Below are positions 721-9,450 of a stretch of 14,617 nt of DNA, in pieces (within the stretch, counting starts at the first letter, position 1; every line of letters starts with the position of its first letter). Under the pieces are notes generated by a model that saw only the letters and a list, made by a program, of their open reading frames with translations, made no database searches and was not told the origin of the DNA. The DNA is from a virus. The translations under genes were made by a program, and so were the position numbers. The DNA is taken from UHGV virus genome UHGV-0060032, one strand, 5' to 3'.

Positions 721-1590
721 ATGACAAATACAGCAAAAATACTCAACTTCGGCAGAGGTAACTTTGCCGAACAGGAGCTAAGAGTGGCTGATATCGATGA
801 TGGTTACACCAGATTCGCTAACGAGCTGCTGGAAGCTATCGCAAGTGCCGATTTAACCGCTCGCCAGTTGAAAGTTATGCTGGCCTACGTCCGGAAAACA
901 TATGGATTCAATAAGAAAACAGATCGAATAGCCGATGAGCAAATTGCTCAGTTAACAGGACTATCAAGGCAGAATGTTAACAAGGCTAAAAAAGAACTGA
1001 TTTCAATGAATTGCCTGTTTATGGATGGAAATCAAATCGGTGTAAACAGGGAGGTATCTGCGTGGCAATTCAGCAAGTGTCTCCAAGTTAGCAACTTTGT
1101 CTCGAAGTTAGAGACAAAAAATGTCTCCAAATTAGAGACACTCAATGTCTCGAAGTTAGAGACACTCAATGTCTCGAAGTTAGAGACACACAAAAGACAT
1201 TCTTTAAAGACAAAAGAAAATATTAATAAACCCCCTATATCCCCCAAAAAAATTTCTCAGAAGTTCGACCCGCTAGAAACAGAGTTGCCTGATTGGTTAT
1301 CGGCAGAAACATGGTTGTCGTGGGTTACCTATCGCAAGGAGATAGGTAAGTCGATCAAGTCTAAGCAAAGCGTCACTCAGGCTATCAACGTTCTAAGCAG
1401 AAGTCTGGAGAAGGGATATACACCTGAAGAAATTATAAACCAGAGCATCGCCAGTGGTTGGCAGGGGATTTTTGAACCCAAGACTCCAAAGGGGAAATCT
1501 CAACCGAGGCCGCAGCAGCGAGCTATGCAGGAAAACTTTGCCGCCAAAGATTACGGGCAAACTGAAATGCCTTCATGGGCGCAGGAGTGA
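721..1590 (+). CDS. Replication initiator, lambda O-like (iteron-binding N-terminal domain)
   Basis: N-terminus MTNTAKILNFGRGNFAEQE...DDGY...LKVMLAYVRKTYGFNK closely resembles lambda O N-terminal domain; the gene contains the iteron array; RBS AGGAG upstream. Confidence 0.8.
   Translation: MTNTAKILNFGRGNFAEQELRVADIDDGYTRFANELLEAIASADLTARQLKVMLAYVRKTYGFNKKTDRIADEQIAQLTGLSRQNVNKAKKELISMNCLFMDGNQIGVNREVSAWQFSKCLQVSNFVSKLETKNVSKLETLNVSKLETLNVSKLETHKRHSLKTKENINKPPISPKKISQKFDPLETELPDWLSAETWLSWVTYRKEIGKSIKSKQSVTQAINVLSRSLEKGYTPEEIINQSIASGWQGIFEPKTPKGKSQPRPQQRAMQENFAAKDYGQTEMPSWAQE
1078..1260 (+). repeat. Origin of replication: iteron array plus AT-rich tract inside the O-like gene
   Basis: Four copies of the palindromic 19-mer TGTCTC-N7-GAGACA at 1098, 1122, 1146 and 1170 (exact 24-bp spacing), a degenerate copy at 1078, then an A/T-rich stretch 1189-1260. 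This mirrors ori-lambda organisation. Confidence 0.8.
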
Positions 1591-1592
1591 AT

Positions 1593-2486
1593 ATGAATAC
1601 GACAAATGGTTACAATCTGGCACTGCAAAGGCAACTTGTAGACTCAAAAATCAATGACATTTCTGATCTGAAACAGAAACTTGAGTTTAGCAAAATTGGA
1701 TCAGTATCAGATGGAATGTCAGTTACCAGCACAGTGGAAGAGTGCGAGAAACACGGTAAATATACTTCCTATGAGAAATATCTGACCATCTCAGGAAAAA
1801 GAATTACTTCAAGTAAATCTGAGTGCCCACAGTGCCTTGAGGAGAAAATTCGTAAGAAAGAGATTGAACGTGAGCAGGCAGAACAAAGAGCAAGACAATC
1901 AAAAATTGAATATTTGTTGAATTCTCTCAATATTCCAGAGAGGTTCAAAAATTGCACTCTTCAGAATTATGAGCCTGTTAACGATGATGCAAAGCGAGTT
2001 CTTAAGGTATGCCAGGCATATGCCAGTAAGTGGCCTGAACGCCTTCAAAAAGGTGGCGGACTGGTCATGTGTGGTAAGCCTGGAACTGGAAAGAACCACC
2101 TTGCACTGGCTATCGCTAGGCACGCCATTATCGAGCATCAAAGCTCTGTGATATTTACCACTGCGTTGAAAATTGCCAGAGAGTACAAATCAACATGGTC
2201 TAAGGCCGCAACCAGAACTGAAGAAGAAGTCATTAGGCAATTTACGCATCCTGACTTGTTAATAATCGATGAGGTTGGCGTGCAGTTCGGCAGTGATGCT
2301 GAAAAGCTAATCATGTTCGAAATTATCAACACCAGATATGAATACATGAAGCCAACAATCCTGATTAGTAATCAGAGCAAAGATGAACTTTCGGCATTCA
2401 TTGGTGAGCGTGTTATTGACAGGATGAATGATGGCGGAGGGTGCACTCTTGCGTTTACATGGGATAGTTACAGGAGCAGATCGTGA
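1593..2486 (+). CDS. DnaC/IstB-like AAA+ helicase loader with N-terminal Cys-containing extension
   Basis: Walker A GKPGTGKNHLA and Walker B LLIIDEVG; CEKHG...CPQC motif near N-terminus; start at 1593 chosen for AGGAG RBS; occupies the lambda P position after O. Confidence 0.75.
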   Translation: MNTTNGYNLALQRQLVDSKINDISDLKQKLEFSKIGSVSDGMSVTSTVEECEKHGKYTSYEKYLTISGKRITSSKSECPQCLEEKIRKKEIEREQAEQRARQSKIEYLLNSLNIPERFKNCTLQNYEPVNDDAKRVLKVCQAYASKWPERLQKGGGLVMCGKPGTGKNHLALAIARHAIIEHQSSVIFTTALKIAREYKSTWSKAATRTEEEVIRQFTHPDLLIIDEVGVQFGSDAEKLIMFEIINTRYEYMKPTILISNQSKDELSAFIGERVIDRMNDGGGCTLAFTWDSYRSRS

Positions 2487-2798: not shown

Positions 2799-2830
2799 AG
2801 GCCTGCTGGTAATCGCAGGCCTTTTTATTT
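2799..2830 (+). terminator. Rho-independent terminator-like hairpin
   Basis: AGGCCTGC (2799-2806), 8-nt loop, GCAGGCCT (2815-2822), followed by TTTTATTT. Confidence 0.65.
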
Positions 2831-3085: not shown

Positions 3086-3292
3086 ATGACAAATCAGCAG
3101 CAAATAGAGTTCATCCTTGAGCAGATTCGAAAAATGCGAGAAAAGAACCAGCCAGACATGATGGAAATATGGAGACGCCAGCAGGAAGAATACCGCAAGC
3201 ATATTTTTGGTGAGAGAAAACAGGATGACTGGAGCCTATATGGCTATGGCACCAGGACAAATAAAAACGGATATAGCCTTTACACATATTGA
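3086..3292 (+). CDS. Hypothetical protein (68 aa)
   Basis: ATG at 3086 preceded by AAGGAG; charged, helical-looking product; no recognisable family. Confidence 0.4.
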   Translation: MTNQQQIEFILEQIRKMREKNQPDMMEIWRRQQEEYRKHIFGERKQDDWSLYGYGTRTNKNGYSLYTY

Positions 3293-3300
3293 GGAATTCC

Positions 3301-3711
3301 ATGAAACAGACAATTTTCCTCAGGAGTAAGCAACAACAGCAAACCGCAATCACCGCCATCCTCGCAACACCACTCGATAAAGACAAGCCAGTTACCATCC
3401 GCATTACTGACTACAAGCGCAACCTTGACCAGAACGCAAAATTTCACGCGATGCTGGCGGATATCGCAAGTCAGGTTCAATGGTGCGGCAAATGGTTAAA
3501 ACCAGAACAATGGAAGGTTTTGTTGATAAGCGGTCATGCAGTGGCAACAAAGCAGGAAGCTGATGTTTTGCCCGGCCTTGAAGGCGAATACGTCAACATT
3601 CGCGAAAGCAGCGCGCAGATGAGCGTGAAGCGTATGGCAAGTCTGATCGAGTACACAACAGCATGGGCTATTGGTCAGGGTGTCAGATTTACCGACAGGA
3701 GGTACGAATGA
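3301..3711 (+). CDS. ninB: NinB-like recombination protein
   Basis: The segment [24 protein letters not shown]...[12 protein letters not shown] resembles lambda NinB as I recall it; GAGGAA RBS; first gene of a nin-like cluster. Confidence 0.6.
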
Positions 3712-3884
3712 GACGACAGCGACGAAGTATCACCGACATAATCTGCGAAAACTGCAAATACCTTCCAACGAAACGCTCCAGAAATAAACGCAAGCCAATC
3801 CCAAAAGAATCTGACGTAAAAACCTTCAACTACACGGCTCACCTGTGGGATATCCGGTGGCTAAGGCATCGTGCGAGGAAATGA
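3708..3884 (+). CDS. ninE: NinE-like small protein
   Basis: 58-aa basic product [19 protein letters not shown]...; ATGA overlap with ninB stop; size and position match ninE. Name is from recall and synteny only. Confidence 0.5.
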
Positions 3885-3886
3885 CA

Positions 3887-4297
3887 ATGGATTATTCACA
3901 GTTAAGTGATTTTGAAATTAACAAGCGAGTATGTGAGGCTTTAGATATGGAGGAGCATTTCTTCATACCTGATGACGAAGCAGATTTCGATTCTGAGATC
4001 CCCACTGACGAAAGAGGTCCTATTTGGCAGACGCAAAAAAGGGATATTAATGGCTTCCGTTCTTCAAACGGAAATTGCTTCAATCCTTGCAATAATCCTG
4101 AATATGCGTGGCCAATTATCACTGAAAACAAAATCAGCATAATGTTTGATAGTACCGATACGAGATATGAAGGCGAATATCACGAGTGGTGTGATGCGAT
4201 TTCATCTTGTCAAAAGTTCGGAATTCAGTATCAGTCTAATCCACTCCGCGCCGCCATGATTGTCTTTCTCATGATGCAGGACGCCAATAATGCTTAG
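3887..4297 (+). CDS. Hypothetical protein in NinX-like position (136 aa, acidic, Cys-containing)
   Basis: ORF between ninE-like and ninF-like genes; start at 3887 chosen for GAGGAA spacing (3881 also possible). The NinX call is positional only. Confidence 0.4.
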   Translation: MDYSQLSDFEINKRVCEALDMEEHFFIPDDEADFDSEIPTDERGPIWQTQKRDINGFRSSNGNCFNPCNNPEYAWPIITENKISIMFDSTDTRYEGEYHEWCDAISSCQKFGIQYQSNPLRAAMIVFLMMQDANNA

Positions 4298-4466
4298 CCC
4301 ATCCCAATCCCTTCAATACCAGAAAGAAAGCGTCGAGCGGGCTTTAACGTGCGCTAACTGCGGTCAGAAGCTGCATGTGCTGGAAGTTCACGTGTGCTCC
4401 GATTGCTGCGCAGAGCTGATGAGCGATCCGAATAGCTCAATGTACGAGGAAGAAGACGATGAATGA
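4290..4466 (+). CDS. ninF: NinF-like small Cys-rich protein
   Basis: 58-aa ORF absent from the supplied track (under 60 aa); MLSPSQSLQYQKESVERALTCANCGQKLHVLEVHVCSDCCAELMSDPNSSMYEEEDDE; CxxC...CxxCC pattern; overlaps both neighbours. Confidence 0.5.
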   Translation: MLSPSQSLQYQKESVERALTCANCGQKLHVLEVHVCSDCCAELMSDPNSSMYEEEDDE

Positions 4467-5181
4467 GTTAATAAATGGCAATGCCATCAAAATGACAAGC
4501 ATTGAAATCGCTGAGTTGGTGGGAAGTCGTCATGACAAGGTGAAACAATCTATTGAACGACTGGCGGCTCGAGGTGTGATCCGAAATCCCCCAATGGTGG
4601 TTTTCGAAAAAATCAATAACTTAGGATTACTTCGTGGCGTAGAGGCTTACGTTTTTGAGGGCGAACAAGGTAAGCGAGACAGCATTATTGTCGTCGCTCA
4701 GTTGTCGCCGGAATTCACCGCTCGTCTTGTTGACCGTTGGCGAGAGCTTGAAGAAGCTGCGGTTAATATCCCCAAAACGCTACCAGAAGCGTTGCGCCTT
4801 GCTGCTGATCTTGCTGAGCAGAAAATGCAACTGGAAAACCAGCTCGCAATTGCCGCACCTAAAGTTGAGTTTGCCGATCGCGTTGGCGAGGCCAGCGGAA
4901 TTTTGATTGGAAACTTTGCAAAGGTTGTTGGTATTGGTCCAAACAAACTGTTTGCGTGGATGCGCGATCACAAAATCCTTATTGCTTCAGGTTCCCGGCG
5001 CAATGTGCCAATGCAGGAATATATGGAGCGCGGCTATTTCACAGTGAAAGAAACAGCGGTCAACACAAATCACGGAATACAGATATCGTTCACCACAAAA
5101 ATCACCGGGCGTGGTCAACAGTGGCTGACCAGAAAGCTGCTCGATAACGGAATGCTGAAAGTAACAGGGGAGGCTGCTTAA
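4459..5181 (+). CDS. Phage antirepressor-like protein (Rha/AntA-like N-terminal region, KilA-C/ANT-like C-terminal region)
   Basis: 240 aa; N-terminal SIEIAELVGSRHDKVKQSIERL resembles Rha/Ant N-domains; C-terminal half (APKVEFADRVGE...YFTVKET...) resembles KilA-C domains. Assigned by recall of family motifs. Confidence 0.6.
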   Translation: MNELINGNAIKMTSIEIAELVGSRHDKVKQSIERLAARGVIRNPPMVVFEKINNLGLLRGVEAYVFEGEQGKRDSIIVVAQLSPEFTARLVDRWRELEEAAVNIPKTLPEALRLAADLAEQKMQLENQLAIAAPKVEFADRVGEASGILIGNFAKVVGIGPNKLFAWMRDHKILIASGSRRNVPMQEYMERGYFTVKETAVNTNHGIQISFTTKITGRGQQWLTRKLLDNGMLKVTGEAA

Positions 5182-5471
5182 TGGCCAATCTACGCAAAGA
5201 AGCACGCGGCAGAGAATGTCAGGTACGTATTTACGGCGTATGCAATGGCAATCCTGAAACTACAGTTCTGGCACATTACCGGATGGCTGGAATTTGCGGA
5301 ACGGGAATGAAACCTGACGACCTGATCGGCGCATGGGCTTGTAGCGACTGCCACGCGGAGATCGACCGACGCACCCATAACCTCGACAACAAAGACGCCA
5401 GACTTTACCACCTCGAAGGCGTGATCAGGACGCAGGCGATACTGCTGAAGGAGGGGAAGATTAAACCATGA
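5181..5471 (+). CDS. YbcO-like DUF1364 protein (putative nuclease)
   Basis: 96 aa; MANLRKEARGRECQVRIYGVCNGNPETTVLAHYR...CSDCHAEIDRR resembles E. coli prophage YbcO; sits directly upstream of rusA as in DLP12-type prophages. Confidence 0.6.
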   Translation: MANLRKEARGRECQVRIYGVCNGNPETTVLAHYRMAGICGTGMKPDDLIGAWACSDCHAEIDRRTHNLDNKDARLYHLEGVIRTQAILLKEGKIKP

Positions 5472-5830
5472 ACGAATATCAGTTTGTGCTTCCATACCCG
5501 CCGTCGCTGAATACCTACTGGAGAAGACGGGGAAGCCAATACTACATCAGCGATAAAGGCCAGAAATACCGAAAAGACGTTCAGCAAATCATTCGCCAAC
5601 TCAAGTTAGACATTTTCACCAAATCACGACTCCGTATCAAAGTCATCGCAGACGTTCCAGATTCCCGCCGCCGCGACCTCGACAACATCCTGAAAGGTTT
5701 ACTCGACTCCCTTATCCACGCCGGATTTGCGGAAGACGACGAGCAATTCGATGACATTCGCGTAATTCGTGGTGTGAAAGTACCAGGCGGACGGCTTGGA
5801 ATAAAAATCACCGAACTGGAGAACGCATGA
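5468..5830 (+). CDS. rusA: Holliday junction resolvase RusA
   Basis: 120 aa; LPYPPSLNTYWRRRG...RRRDLDNILKGLLDSL...GGRLGIKITEL matches the RusA family including the acidic catalytic RRDLDN motif. Confidence 0.8.
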   Translation: MNEYQFVLPYPPSLNTYWRRRGSQYYISDKGQKYRKDVQQIIRQLKLDIFTKSRLRIKVIADVPDSRRRDLDNILKGLLDSLIHAGFAEDDEQFDDIRVIRGVKVPGGRLGIKITELENA

Positions 5831-6015
5831 ACGCCACAATTCAAACGATACCAGAGCTTCTTATCCAGACACGAGGCAATCAGACCGAAGTGGCGAGGAT
5901 GCTTTCCTGCGCAAGAGGAACAGTGCTCAAGTACAACCGAGACAGCAAAGGCGAGCGTCACGTAATAGTTAACGGCGTCCTGATGGTCAAACAAGGCAAG
6001 AGGGGAAGACGATGA
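5827..6015 (+). CDS. ninH: NinH-like small DNA-binding protein
   Basis: 62 aa; TIPELLIQTRGNQTEVARMLSCARGTVLKY resembles lambda NinH (Fis-like HTH) as I recall it; directly upstream of Q. Confidence 0.5.
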   Translation: MNATIQTIPELLIQTRGNQTEVARMLSCARGTVLKYNRDSKGERHVIVNGVLMVKQGKRGRR

Positions 6016-6530
6016 GCATAAGAGAACTAAACCTCACCAAAGAGCAGCACGAGTGGCTGAATGGCTGGCTTGAACTGTGGGGCGCATGGGTTTATTCAGG
6101 TCGTCTGGAAAAGCGCATGAGCAGCGTAATAGCGAAGTTCATGGAGAGCGTAGAGCCGGGAAGAATTATGACAAGGCCAATGTGTAATGATGATGATGGA
6201 ATGTTGATTTCTCAGGTCGTTGATTCCGTCATGTACATTGACAAGAAAGCCTTTGGCATCCTCCTCAGCTACTACGCTCATGGTTCATCTAAGCGAGCAA
6301 TTGCATCCTACTATCACGCGACTGCAAAGCCACGCAAGATGTGTGGACGCGGTGGCGAGGGATGGAGAAAACCTTCACTGGCAACCTGTAGAAACGAAAT
6401 TGACGATATCCTGAAAGCGTCATTATTTGTTTTGTACCAACCAATGCAAAATGCTTTCAAAATGCGTAAACGTGTTGAGAAAGTTAAGCATGTTGCTGTT
6501 AAAAACCTTGACATGCAATTAGCCATTTAG
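6012..6530 (+). CDS. Late-gene antiterminator Q (P22 gp23 / DLP12 QuuD-like family)
   Basis: 172 aa; WLELWGAWVYSG...RPMCNDDDGMLI resembles the Q-antiterminator family; a late-promoter-like element overlaps its 3' end. Confidence 0.65.
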   Translation: MSIRELNLTKEQHEWLNGWLELWGAWVYSGRLEKRMSSVIAKFMESVEPGRIMTRPMCNDDDGMLISQVVDSVMYIDKKAFGILLSYYAHGSSKRAIASYYHATAKPRKMCGRGGEGWRKPSLATCRNEIDDILKASLFVLYQPMQNAFKMRKRVEKVKHVAVKNLDMQLAI

Positions 6531-6537
6531 CCATAAT
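6508..6537 (+). promoter_or_regulatory. pR'-like late promoter
   Basis: -35 TTGACA (6508-6513), 18-bp spacer, -10 CATAAT (6532-6537), overlapping the end of the Q gene. Confidence 0.6.
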
Positions 6538-6593
6538 TAGAGGGTAAGCTGCCGTTAGTGACTCTTAAGTTGCAACGGTGGCTTTTTTTATTT

Positions 6594-6668
6594 GGGTCAG
6601 TCGTATAAAGGTCATTACGGAAGGCTGTTAACCTTCTTATCGTGGTTCGAGTCCACGCTGTCCCGCCA
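6594..6668 (+). tRNA. tRNA-Asn (anticodon GUU), phage-encoded
   Basis: Hand-folded cloverleaf, 75 nt: acceptor GGGTCAG/CTGTCCC (one U-U mismatch), U8, anticodon stem GAAGG/CCTTC with loop CUGUUAA, T-arm CGTGG-TTCGAGT-CCACG, discriminator G and encoded CCA. Confidence 0.6.
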
Positions 6669-6673
6669 AACAT

Positions 6674-6749
6674 GCTGGTTTAGCTCCAATGGTAGAGCGG
6701 TCGCCTTGTAAGTGAATAGGTAGCGGTTCAAATCCGTTAACCGGCACCA
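6674..6749 (+). tRNA. tRNA-Thr (anticodon UGU), phage-encoded
   Basis: Hand-folded cloverleaf, 76 nt: acceptor GCTGGTT/AACCGGC, D-arm GCTC-CAATGGTA-GAGC, anticodon loop CUUGUAA (stem has one G-A mismatch), T-arm AGCGG-TTCAAAT-CCGTT, discriminator A and CCA. Confidence 0.55.
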
Positions 6750-6805: not shown

Positions 6806-6830
6806 CCCGCCTTGAGCGGGTTTTTTATTT
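6806..6830 (+). terminator. Rho-independent terminator (tR'-like), after the tRNAs and before the lysis genes
   Basis: CCCGC (6806-6810), loop CTTGA, GCGGG (6816-6820), then TTTTTTATTT. Confidence 0.75.
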
Positions 6831-6938: not shown

Positions 6939-7262
6939 ATGAAAATGCCATACAAACAAGATTTCATCGCTGCGCTACTTGCCGCCAAGGAGCAGGGTAT
7001 TGGTGCAATGCTGGCTTTTATCATGGCGTATCTGCGTGGTCGCTATAACGGCGGCGCGGTAACAAAAACGCTAATTGATGCGCTGATGTGCGCGATGATT
7101 GCCTGGTTCGTTCGTGACCTTCTGGACTTTATCGGCCTGAGCAGCAACCTCGCCTACATAGCCAGCGTCTTTATTGGATACATCGGCACCGATTCGATCG
7201 GCAATCTTATTAAAAAACTTGCAGCAAAAAAGGCGGGAGTTGACGATGCAAACCAGTCCTGA
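6939..7262 (+). CDS. Class I holin, lambda S-like, with dual-start motif
   Basis: 107 aa from ATG 6939; begins [27 protein letters not shown]..., near-identical in pattern to lambda S including the Met-Lys-Met dual start (second ATG at 6945). Confidence 0.85.
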
Positions 7263-7695
7263 CGGAATTGCTCTGATAAAAAAATTTGAAGGTTGTCGGC
7301 TGACTGCTTACCCCGACCCCGGAACGGGAGATGCGCCGTGGACCATCGGCTATGGCTGGACCCATCCGGTTGACGGAAAGCCAGTAAAGCGCGGTATGAC
7401 TATCGACCAGCAAACCGCTGACAGGCTTCTGAAAACAGGGCTTGTTGGTTATGAGAATGACGTGCTGAAAGTTGTCAGGGTGAAGCTGACACAAGGCCAG
7501 TTCGACGCACTGGTGTCGTTCGCTTACAACGTTGGGTCGCGTGCTCTTTCCACATCTACACTGCTGAAAAAGCTGAATGCTGGCGATATAAAAGGCGCGG
7601 CAGATGAATTTCTGCGCTGGAATAAATCAGGCGGAAAGGTGATGCCGGGGCTCACGAATCGCCGCAAGGCAGAGCGAGCTCTGTTCCTGTCATGA
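7246..7695 (+). CDS. Endolysin, lysozyme (glycoside hydrolase family 24, P22 gp19-like)
   Basis: 149 aa from ATG 7246; [33 protein letters not shown] and C-terminal [11 protein letters not shown] typical of T4/P22-type lysozymes; overlaps holin end. Confidence 0.85.
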
Positions 7696-8159
7696 TTAGC
7701 GCACTGGTTAAGCGTTACTGGCTGCAGTTGCTGGTGCTGGCGTTAATCGGCGCACTGGCTTTCTTCGTGAACCACTACCGCGACAACGCCATCACTTACA
7801 GAGACCAGCGCGATAAGGCCACTGAGAAACTCCTCCTGGCGACCGCCACCATTAAAGACATGCAGACCCGCCAGCGTGATGTCGCTGCACTGGATGCCAA
7901 ATACACCGGAGAACTGGCTGATGCGAAAGAAACCATTGAGCGTCTGCATAGCGATGTCATTGCTGGCCGTAAGCGGCTGCAAGTCGCCGCCACCTGTGCA
8001 AAGTCAACGACCGGAGCCAGCGGCATGGGCGATGGAGAAAGCCCAAGACTTACAGCAGATGCTGAACTCAATTATTACCGTCTCCGAAGTGGAATCGACA
8101 AGATAACCGCGCAGGTTAACTACCTGCAGGAGTACATCAGGACGCAATGCCTGAAATAA
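7692..8159 (+). CDS. Rz-like i-spanin
   Basis: 155 aa; N-terminal transmembrane segment [17 protein letters not shown] then charged coiled-coil-like region; ATGA overlap with lysozyme stop; contains Rz1 in the +1 frame. Confidence 0.8.
7921..8106 (+). CDS. Rz1-like o-spanin (outer-membrane lipoprotein) embedded within Rz
   Basis: 61 aa from ATG 7921: [20 protein letters not shown] (signal peptide plus lipobox Cys) followed by proline-rich [13 protein letters not shown]; fully nested in Rz. Confidence 0.75.
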
Positions 8160-8192
8160 TTTTTTTTGCAAATCACAAAGTCCATTTAATGA

Positions 8193-8216
8193 GCCTCGCG
8201 ATGCGGGGCTTTTTTA
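8193..8216 (+). terminator. Rho-independent terminator-like hairpin after the lysis cassette
   Basis: GCCTCGC (8193-8199), loop GAT, GCGGGGC (8203-8209, one G-U pair), followed by TTTTTT. Confidence 0.6.
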
Positions 8217-8359: not shown

Positions 8360-8911
8360 ATGAATGATATTTCTATCGAATATCTGAAAGAAGCACTGGA
8401 ATACGCACCAGATACTGGTGTTATCCGTTGGAAGCAGCGACCAAAAATTCATTTTAAGACCGAAAATTCTTGGCGGGCGACCAATGCTAATTTTGCTGGA
8501 AAAGTAGCAGGCGCACGTGATAGCGATGGATATTTGCGTATCGGGATATGCGGCCGGTTATATAGATCTCATCGTGTAGCCTGGGCGTTACATTACGGCT
8601 ACTGGCCTGATAATGAGATTGATCACATTTCAGGCGATAGGAGTGATAACCGCATAGACAACTTGCGATCAGTAACTTCGGCAGCCAATAGCAAAAATTT
8701 GCGCCTTTACTCCACAAATAAAACCGGTATCCCAGGAGTAGGTTGGTATAAAGCGCGGGGAAAGTGGAGAGCAAAGATAAACGTCTCTGGGAAGGTGAAG
8801 CATATTGGTTACTTCGATGATTTCCGTGAAGCGGTGAAAGCAAGAAAGGCTGCCGAGATGCAGTTGCAATATCACAAAAATCACGGAACCAGAGACAGGC
8901 TCACTTTCTAA
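8360..8911 (+). CDS. HNH endonuclease with C-terminal AP2-like DNA-binding region
   Basis: 183 aa; HNH core HRVAWALHYGYWPDNEIDHISGDRSDNRIDNLR; C-terminal GIPGVGWYKARGKWRAKINVSGKVKHIGYFDDFREA resembles AP2 domains of phage endonucleases. Confidence 0.75.
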   Translation: MNDISIEYLKEALEYAPDTGVIRWKQRPKIHFKTENSWRATNANFAGKVAGARDSDGYLRIGICGRLYRSHRVAWALHYGYWPDNEIDHISGDRSDNRIDNLRSVTSAANSKNLRLYSTNKTGIPGVGWYKARGKWRAKINVSGKVKHIGYFDDFREAVKARKAAEMQLQYHKNHGTRDRLTF

Positions 8912-8925
8912 AAGGTAAAGACGCT

Positions 8926-9450
8926 ATGAATAATCATTCAGTTATTCCATCCTTCGACTTCCGAGAAATGGTGCAAGCCAAAAACGGAGAGGTCGTTACC
9001 ACATCCAGAAAAATTGCCAAGTACTTCGGCAAGCGACACGGTGATGTTCTCAGGAAAATCGAGCAGGTTAAGGCTGATTGCTCGCGTGAGTTTAGCCAAC
9101 GCAATTTTGCGTCGGCTGATTATATCGATGAGCAGGGCAAGGTTCGCCCGATGTACAGCCTGACGAAAGATGGCTGGATCATGGTTGTGATGGGGTTCAC
9201 CGGGAAAGCTGCTGCGGCAATCAAGGAGAGCTATATCGCAGCATTCAACTGGATGGCAGAGCAGCTAAACCGGCGCATGGCGATGGGTGAAGAATTGCAG
9301 CATCGCTACGCCATCAAAGAAACGCGCTCAAAGCTGAAAGGCACGTTCGGAAGCCGTTTGATGAACGAGCGGAAGAAAGAGAAGCGCGTCCTGGAGCTCG
9401 AACATGAGCACATCATGCAGGTAACGCAGCCGGAATTACTTATTGGCTGA
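8926..9450 (+). CDS. Phage regulatory protein Rha family
   Basis: 174 aa; VVTTSRKIAKYFGKRHGDVLRKIEQV...MYSLTKDGWIMVVMGF matches the Rha-domain pattern as I recall it. Confidence 0.65.
   Translation: MNNHSVIPSFDFREMVQAKNGEVVTTSRKIAKYFGKRHGDVLRKIEQVKADCSREFSQRNFASADYIDEQGKVRPMYSLTKDGWIMVVMGFTGKAAAAIKESYIAAFNWMAEQLNRRMAMGEELQHRYAIKETRSKLKGTFGSRLMNERKKEKRVLELEHEHIMQVTQPELLIG

Follow-up and report, generated by a model that had tools for sequence, protein, structure and literature searches.

What an antirepressor-like gene is doing in a nin region, and whether that label describes its function, are the questions raised by a stretch of 14,617 nucleotides from virus genome UHGV-0060032 (hereafter the window). 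An earlier note on this DNA had described a 240-aa gene of Rha/KilA-C architecture inserted between ninF and ybcO, coupled to both neighbors and expressed with the delayed-early transcript, and had suggested that its product could inactivate the repressors of co-resident prophages. Taken together, database searches, comparison with related phage loci, and structure modelling point to a known gene, roi, whose product is in our view better described as a DNA-binding regulator than as an antirepressor.

Position, junctions, and expression context of roi

The gene lies at positions 4459-5181, between ninF and ybcO, as had been described. The Pfam assignments of its neighbors likewise agree with a nin-type order, ninB-ninE-ninX-ninF-roi-ybcO-rusA-ninH-Q, in which the gene previously left as "X" is NinX. 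The features of this interval are as follows.

3289-3711: NinB (Pfam)
3663-3884: NinE (Pfam)
3845-4297: NinX (Pfam)
4290-4466, plus strand: ninF, the 5' flank of the cassette slot (Pfam NinF, 51.6 bits)
4459-4466, plus strand: 8 nt common to ninF (stop) and roi (start), ATGAATGA (sequence reading)
4459-5181, plus strand: roi coding sequence, 240 aa, ATG start and TAA stop (open reading frame list and translation)
5179-5183, plus strand: 1-nt overlap of the roi stop and the ybcO start, TAATG (sequence reading)
5181-5471, plus strand: ybcO, encoding an HK97 gp66-type putative nuclease, the 3' flank of the slot (Pfam YbcO, 147.2 bits)
5468-5830: RusA (Pfam)
5827-6015: NinH (Pfam)
6012-6530: Q (Pfam)

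Coupling on both sides is borne out by these overlaps. The roi ATG (4459-4461) falls within the final codons of ninF, whose TGA stop is at 4464-4466, and GAGGA is found 5' of this ATG at 4446-4450. At the other end, the TAA of roi (5179-5181) has one base in common with the ATG of ybcO (5181-5183), 5' of which GGGGAGG is found at 5167-5173. In the phages VT2-Sakai and BP-4795 (positions 2440-2500 of our records L087 and L086, respectively), roi does not overlap an upstream gene; the intergenic stretch 5' of the gene there carries a terminator-like tail (GCTGGGTTTTTTATTGCTG), and roi is served by a ribosome-binding site of its own, GAGAGG. Coupling as in the window thus depends on context.

A candidate regulatory element is located upstream of the whole nin region:

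2799-2822, plus strand: terminator-like hairpin and T-run, 5' of the nin region (consensus scan; 8-bp stem with 6 G-C pairs, tail TTTTATTT)

This strong hairpin is analogous in position to lambda tR2, and by that analogy it would make expression of roi dependent on antitermination. At the end of Q, a promoter match of 11/12 (6508-6537) is likely pR'. Between positions 2400 and 6900, seven promoter-like sites were found, compared to a mean of 5.8 after shuffling, and none is situated just 5' of roi. Because roi overlaps both of its neighbors and promoter-like sites near it are no more frequent than chance would give, it is a reasonable inference that its expression comes from the rightward early transcript after antitermination, in line with the delayed-early expression proposed previously.

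Elsewhere in the window, genes for tRNA-Asn(GTT) (6594-6668) and tRNA-Thr(TGT) (6674-6749) on the plus strand are located ahead of the holin gene, between the likely pR' and a terminator-like hairpin at 6806-6820, and the same pair is annotated in phage vB_EcoP-720R6. The replication loader (1575-2486, plus strand), which follows an O-type initiator (721-1590), is not of the lambda P type but an AAA+ protein resembling IstB/DnaC.

Identity of roi and occupancy of the slot after ninF

The encoded protein displays 90% amino acid identity to both HK022 Roi and HK97 Roi over its full length (240/241 residues), 93% to the HK629 and VT2-Sakai proteins, and 82% to that of BP-4795. At the nucleotide level it is 94.8% identical to HK629 roi, and the protein matches PHROG 63 with an E value of 1.4e-95. 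HK022 Roi, HK97 gp65, and the Roi proteins of HK620, HK629, and Stx phages have the same domains and, apart from a one-residue indel, the same length. In HK022, HK97, and HK629, the gene is found, as in the window, downstream of ninF, between P and Q, and overlaps its neighbors at the same junctions. By these sequence comparisons, the open reading frame at 4459-5181 is an ordinary copy of roi and its product an orthologue of HK022/HK97 Roi.

The gene is thus already known: its name and a partial characterization date back to 1996, and hundreds of phage records annotate it. A megablast search with positions 3200-6600 of the window matched 444 phage records, in which the gene is called roi, "Roi protein", or "DNA-binding protein Roi", and in RefSeq re-annotations "anti-repressor". 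The gene alone matched 219 phage records, of which 214 had the full-length gene, as well as 559 IMG/VR contigs, and it was found in 1040 of 5426 complete E. coli genomes (~19%), with up to four copies per genome. A homologue search against 1.84 billion cluster representatives returned 6752 clusters at E ≤ 0.001, including 192 at E ≤ 1e-30; many of the representatives listed are 225-250 aa long and aligned across nearly the full Roi query. The two-domain family accordingly comprises thousands of 50%-identity clusters, and the public databases include proteins 99% identical to the Roi of the window. Since homologues number in the thousands and some are 99% identical, roi is a real conserved gene and no chance open reading frame. 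Searches with Roi found no relatives in a PDB sequence search, no match in NCBIfam, and no match among the PADLOC defense models at E ≤ 0.01. In a few database relatives (P0121 and P0271, 304 aa), an extra N-terminal domain of ~64 residues (PF25212) is fused to an otherwise 90%-identical Roi.

How regularly roi occupies this slot was determined by measuring, for each phage record, the gap left by a query in which ninF was fused directly to ybcO-rusA. The slot contents of the 25 distinct phages with both flanks were as follows.

723-726 nt (roi), 17 phages: N7, mEpX1, mEpX2, HK629, Kapi1, E212, CUS-3, Gally, mEp506, HK633, HK97, HK542, HK75, HK022, HZ41, HK620, HK140
270-nt cassette, 4 phages: 611R6, phiv205-1, ECP1, mEp235
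206-nt cassette, 4 phages: 720R6, 683R2, mEp043, ABTNLsp11242

Both alternative cassettes are small open reading frames unrelated to roi, for which a Pfam search gave no significant match. In POCJ13-type phages, ybcO is found without any cassette, and in lambda and P22, ninF is followed by ninG. The junctions are fixed: all cassettes share the 5' junction ...GAAGAAGACG ATGA(A/G)TGA..., with those of mEp235 and 720R6 using the same ninF-stop junction as roi, and all share a 3' junction in which the cassette stop overlaps the ybcO ATG. The TAATG junction is also found where roi precedes ninG (VT2-Sakai, BP-4795). Other settings of roi are before ninG in Stx phages, after ant (VT2-Sakai), and, in some contigs, directly before Q.

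The slot after ninF is a true mosaic cassette site with fixed junctions. Alignment with the nin regions of relatives, proposed earlier as a check on the insertion, refutes the universal presence of roi at this position, as 8 of the 25 phages carry other cassettes. The description of the gene as "inserted" therefore stands in the mosaic sense, because the slot is variable, but it does not mark anything unusual: roi is the commonest occupant and a long-described gene, and is a standard feature of HK022/HK97-type nin regions. It is at the same time a dispensable accessory cassette of lambdoid nin regions, because the slot can hold other cassettes or none and because IS629 insertions disrupting roi have been reported in Stx2a prophage sequence types (PMC4587872).

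Two further observations concern exchange in this region. In the phages with ninF followed by ninG (lambda, P22), the match to the ninF+ybcO query extends ~19 nt beyond the end of ninF (compare window 5182-5200), and the first codons of ninG and ybcO are therefore alike at the DNA level; this likeness may represent a conserved junction that aids cassette exchange. One viral contig (IMGVR_UViG_3300029162_000071, our L100) shares 99.6% identity with the window across 3451-6016 and 99.5% across 6942-8214 but differs between the two, and the nin block has therefore been shuffled recently.

Domain structure and mosaic alleles of Roi

The Roi protein is made up of the following parts, shown with two features embedded in its N-terminal domain.

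4489-4761, plus strand: N-terminal Rha-like winged helix-turn-helix domain, aa 11-101 (Phage_pRha match and AlphaFold2 model)
4522-4647, plus strand: variable patch, aa 22-63 (predicted recognition helix and wing), HK629/VT2-Sakai allele (alignments)
4611-4623, plus strand: IHF consensus match WATCAANNNNTTR (AATCAATAACTTA), inside the variable patch (consensus scan)
4780-4890, plus strand: long linker helix, aa 108-144 (AlphaFold2 model)
4834-5142, plus strand: C-terminal KilAC/ANT domain, aa 126-228 (Pfam)

The Rha/KilA-C architecture described previously is supported, although the two halves differ in how readily they are recognized. The Pfam family ANT/KilAC (PF03374) matches residues 126-228 with 112.9 bits against a cut-off of 25.3, whereas Phage_pRha (PF09669) matches residues 12-99 with 27.8 bits, just under its cut-off of 29.9. 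Among 50 diverse full-length homologues, however, ANT was found in all 50 and Phage_pRha in 49 (E ≤ 0.001, best E 8.8e-18), so the N-terminal domain appears to be a divergent Rha domain. The Pfam domains of P22 Ant-type proteins (P22_AR_N, P22_AR_C, AntA) are absent from Roi.

An AlphaFold2 model, computed from an alignment of diverse homologues taken from the cluster-representative search, has a mean pLDDT of 92.3 and a pTM of 0.58, as expected for two flexibly connected domains. Residues 11-101 are modelled as a strand, two helices, a β-hairpin wing, and two further helices, with pLDDT > 90; residues 108-144 form a single 37-residue helix; and residues 147-229 form a helix-turn-helix, a short helix, a β-hairpin, and a last helix. 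A Foldseek search with the model against the PDB gave no significant match. The best structural matches of the KilAC domain are DNA-binding domains of the MerR/excisionase type, and the same match list was obtained when the domain was modelled alone (pLDDT 82.2), from which we assign it a MerR/excisionase-like winged-helix fold. In these models, both modules of Roi look like DNA-binding domains, in agreement with the published description of the protein.

Conservation of Roi is strong and non-synonymous diversity low except in the patch at aa 22-63, for which at least five alleles exist: one in the window, HK629, and VT2-Sakai, one in HK022 and HK97, one in BP-4795, and two more among database proteins. 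On the AlphaFold2 model, the patch covers a helix (25-38) and a hairpin (46-67), that is, the second helix of the helix-turn-helix motif and the wing, which constitute the usual recognition surface. Because it is the recognition helix and wing that vary between alleles, the patch probably sets the specificity of Roi. A second mosaic segment, aa 99-130 in the front part of the linker helix, has two alleles, both of which occur together with the patch allele of the window (allele A), in free combination. The Roi of the window differs from HK022/HK97 Roi almost only in aa 22-63 and from HK629 Roi in the linker segment, where it is of the HK022 type. Its gene is thus, by these alignments, an intragenic recombinant of known alleles, combining an HK629-type patch with an HK022-type linker.

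The C-terminal half is nearly invariant among the close relatives sampled, synonymous sites included. A cis element within roi was sought through synonymous-site diversity, which is uniformly low throughout the 3' half; shared recent ancestry fits this as well as constraint does. Short imperfect direct repeats are present at 5045-5170 (plus strand) in the 3' part of roi, for example, CGGTCAACACAAA and CGTTCACCACAAA, 30 nt apart, and GGTCAACA, found twice 55 nt apart. They are identical in HK022 roi, although the region is near-identical there anyway, and could be either a protein-binding array or merely coding sequence.

The window contains a second Rha-domain protein, so that the phage carries one early (roi) and one late (rha):

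8926-9450, plus strand: rha, 174 aa (Phage_pRha, 99.4 bits), in the late region, flanked by an HNH endonuclease gene and a metallopeptidase/terminase block (Pfam)

The N-terminal domain of Roi belongs, transitively, to the same Pfam family as this protein and the Rha proteins of phi80 and P22, whereas a pairwise comparison of Roi with the Rha of the window detected no similarity. Rha lacks KilAC and is encoded in the late operon, in contrast to Roi, which has KilAC and is early. The endonuclease gene next to rha (8360-8911, plus strand), located between the Rz gene and rha, encodes a free-standing HNH_3 endonuclease with a weak AP2-like domain; the HNH endonuclease of HK629 is found at another site, after Q.

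According to the Pfam description of Phage_pRha, rha interferes with growth on IHF-deficient hosts, the same class of phenotype as that of roi, and both names derive historically from IHF-dependence phenotypes. HK022 Roi reportedly has a helix-turn-helix motif and binds a site inside its own gene, adjoining an IHF site, and its C-terminal half is said to resemble P1 Ant1 and KilA. In the window, two matches to the IHF consensus were found compared to 0.61 expected by chance, and one of them is inside roi. The HK022/HK97 allele keeps this match (AATCAATGATTTA) despite its diverged patch. We considered whether the motif forms a conserved island and rejected this, since it is kept in two alleles but lost in that of BP-4795, and part of its conservation can be put down to the conserved residues I-N-x-L-G. 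No binding site for Roi itself could be identified in the window. The IHF match is suggestive only, in that its location within roi fits the IHF site reported for HK022.

Function of Roi

We think it reasonably probable that Roi is a sequence-specific DNA-binding regulator tied to IHF, delayed-early and probably dimeric, which acts by an HK022-type mechanism and is encoded by what is itself an accessory cassette. Roi would be made only once the rightward early operon has been derepressed and antiterminated. It would then act as a sequence-specific DNA-binding regulator, probably dimerizing via its long helix, with its specificity probably set by the Rha-like recognition helix and wing. As is said of HK022 Roi, its target would be a site in the roi gene itself, adjoining an IHF site, and it would modulate lytic growth, an effect that would turn harmful to the phage in a host without IHF. 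HK022 Roi is reported as a DNA-binding protein with an IHF-linked lytic-growth phenotype (Clerget and Boccard 1996, PMC178163), and two citing papers call it DNA-binding and connect it with lytic growth. Beyond that study, our literature search for functional work returned only comparative genomics. The match of its C-terminal two-thirds to P1 Ant1 and the SOS inhibition by the KilAC domain of Listeria AriS (PMC9043618), both considered below, mean that Roi may also have an activity directed at proteins.

A true antirepressor would work differently: its KilAC half would bind CI-type repressors as P1 Ant1/Ant2 bind C1, thereby locking in lytic commitment or inducing co-resident prophages in trans. 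The case for this begins with homology. Residues 73-234 of Roi are 59% identical over 165 aa to residues 178-342 of P1 Ant1, covering the linker helix and KilAC, and the Pfam name ANT derives from Ant1/Ant2. The P1 record, whose annotation gives experimental support, states that the product [quoted passage not shown], and both PHROG and RefSeq label the family anti-repressor. Polylysogens for roi are common, with as many as four copies in one E. coli genome, and the variable patch offers a possible specificity surface. However, the homology does not span the whole protein, as the AntA-type N-terminal part of P1 Ant1 is unrelated to that of Roi and is replaced there by a Rha-like domain. P1 ant is located in immI under the control of c4 antisense RNA and its own promoters, as annotated in the record, whereas roi resides within the pR operon and has no independent control. 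Stx phages have a separate ant gene (ORF6N and P22_AR_C domains in VT2-Sakai) adjoining roi, both domains of Roi have predicted folds of the DNA-binding type, and the orthologue that has been studied, HK022 Roi, is described as DNA-binding. The P1 record (L178, 48945-48957) also annotates a predicted IHF-binding site in the 5' part of ant1, near the ant2 start; its likeness to the IHF consensus match in roi is a loose parallel, in a non-homologous part of the gene.

The pairing of Roi with repressors bears on the same question. Fifteen IMG/VR loci, on contigs with enough upstream sequence, encode a Roi at least 98% identical to that of the window, and they carry CI/S24 repressors that fall into 8 clusters when split below 80% identity. 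The motif G(D/N)SM, as expected for S24-type repressors, is present in all 8 representatives, and among them are clusters that we take to be lambda cI-like, 434-like, and P22 c2-like. That near-identical Roi proteins accompany 8 different repressor clusters argues, at the level of sequence, against cognate pairing, but not against broad action or action in trans. Roi is unlikely to be an inducer of its own prophage, that is, an antirepressor matched to its own repressor, because it would be made only after derepression and is not matched to that repressor. On balance, we consider a true antirepressor unlikely. The earlier description of the gene as antirepressor-like is sound as regards the KilA-C homology to the C-terminal half of P1 Ant1, on which the family label rests, but probably does not extend to function, given the DNA-binding orthologue, the 8 repressor types, and the lack of a control of its own.

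A role resembling that of AriS from Listeria phage phi10403S seems to us very doubtful. In this scenario, KilAC would damp SOS induction in the host, probably by way of RecA, and regulation of phage genes would fall to the N-terminal domain; the behavior of co-resident prophages would thereby be aligned. [quoted passage not shown] AriS itself, though, has an AntA/B N-terminal domain and a Gram-positive host, and its function is defined by SOS inhibition. The activity is known only in Firmicutes and only on overexpression, with no SOS inhibition by AriS at native levels (PMC9043618), and the HK022 phenotype concerns IHF rather than SOS.

That roi is a passenger cassette with no role in the phage, kept merely by its recombination-prone conserved junctions, might be read from a slot that can hold unrelated small open reading frames or nothing and from the disruption of roi by IS629 in prophages (PMC4587872), but is extremely improbable given that the frame is intact at full length in 214/219 matching phage records, that Roi, the patch aside, is strongly conserved with little non-synonymous diversity and belongs to a two-domain family of thousands of 50%-identity clusters, and that a phenotype has been published for HK022.

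The DNA-binding, IHF-linked regulator is thus the reading of Roi that we favor. A more speculative extension, which we rate as improbable, is that the patch alleles, which recombine freely with the rest of the gene, are specificity classes by which the Roi of an induced prophage acts on others in the cell, whether via DNA, via repressors, or via RecA/SOS as AriS does; if true, Roi would be a widespread factor in cross-talk between prophages, with about one complete E. coli genome in five carrying the gene.

The roi gene described here matters little as a discovery, and the main value of the analysis is corrective. The database label "anti-repressor" for the Roi family is a homology label. The biochemistry of Roi has been thinly studied, although the gene adjoins Q and stx in many Shiga-toxin phages.
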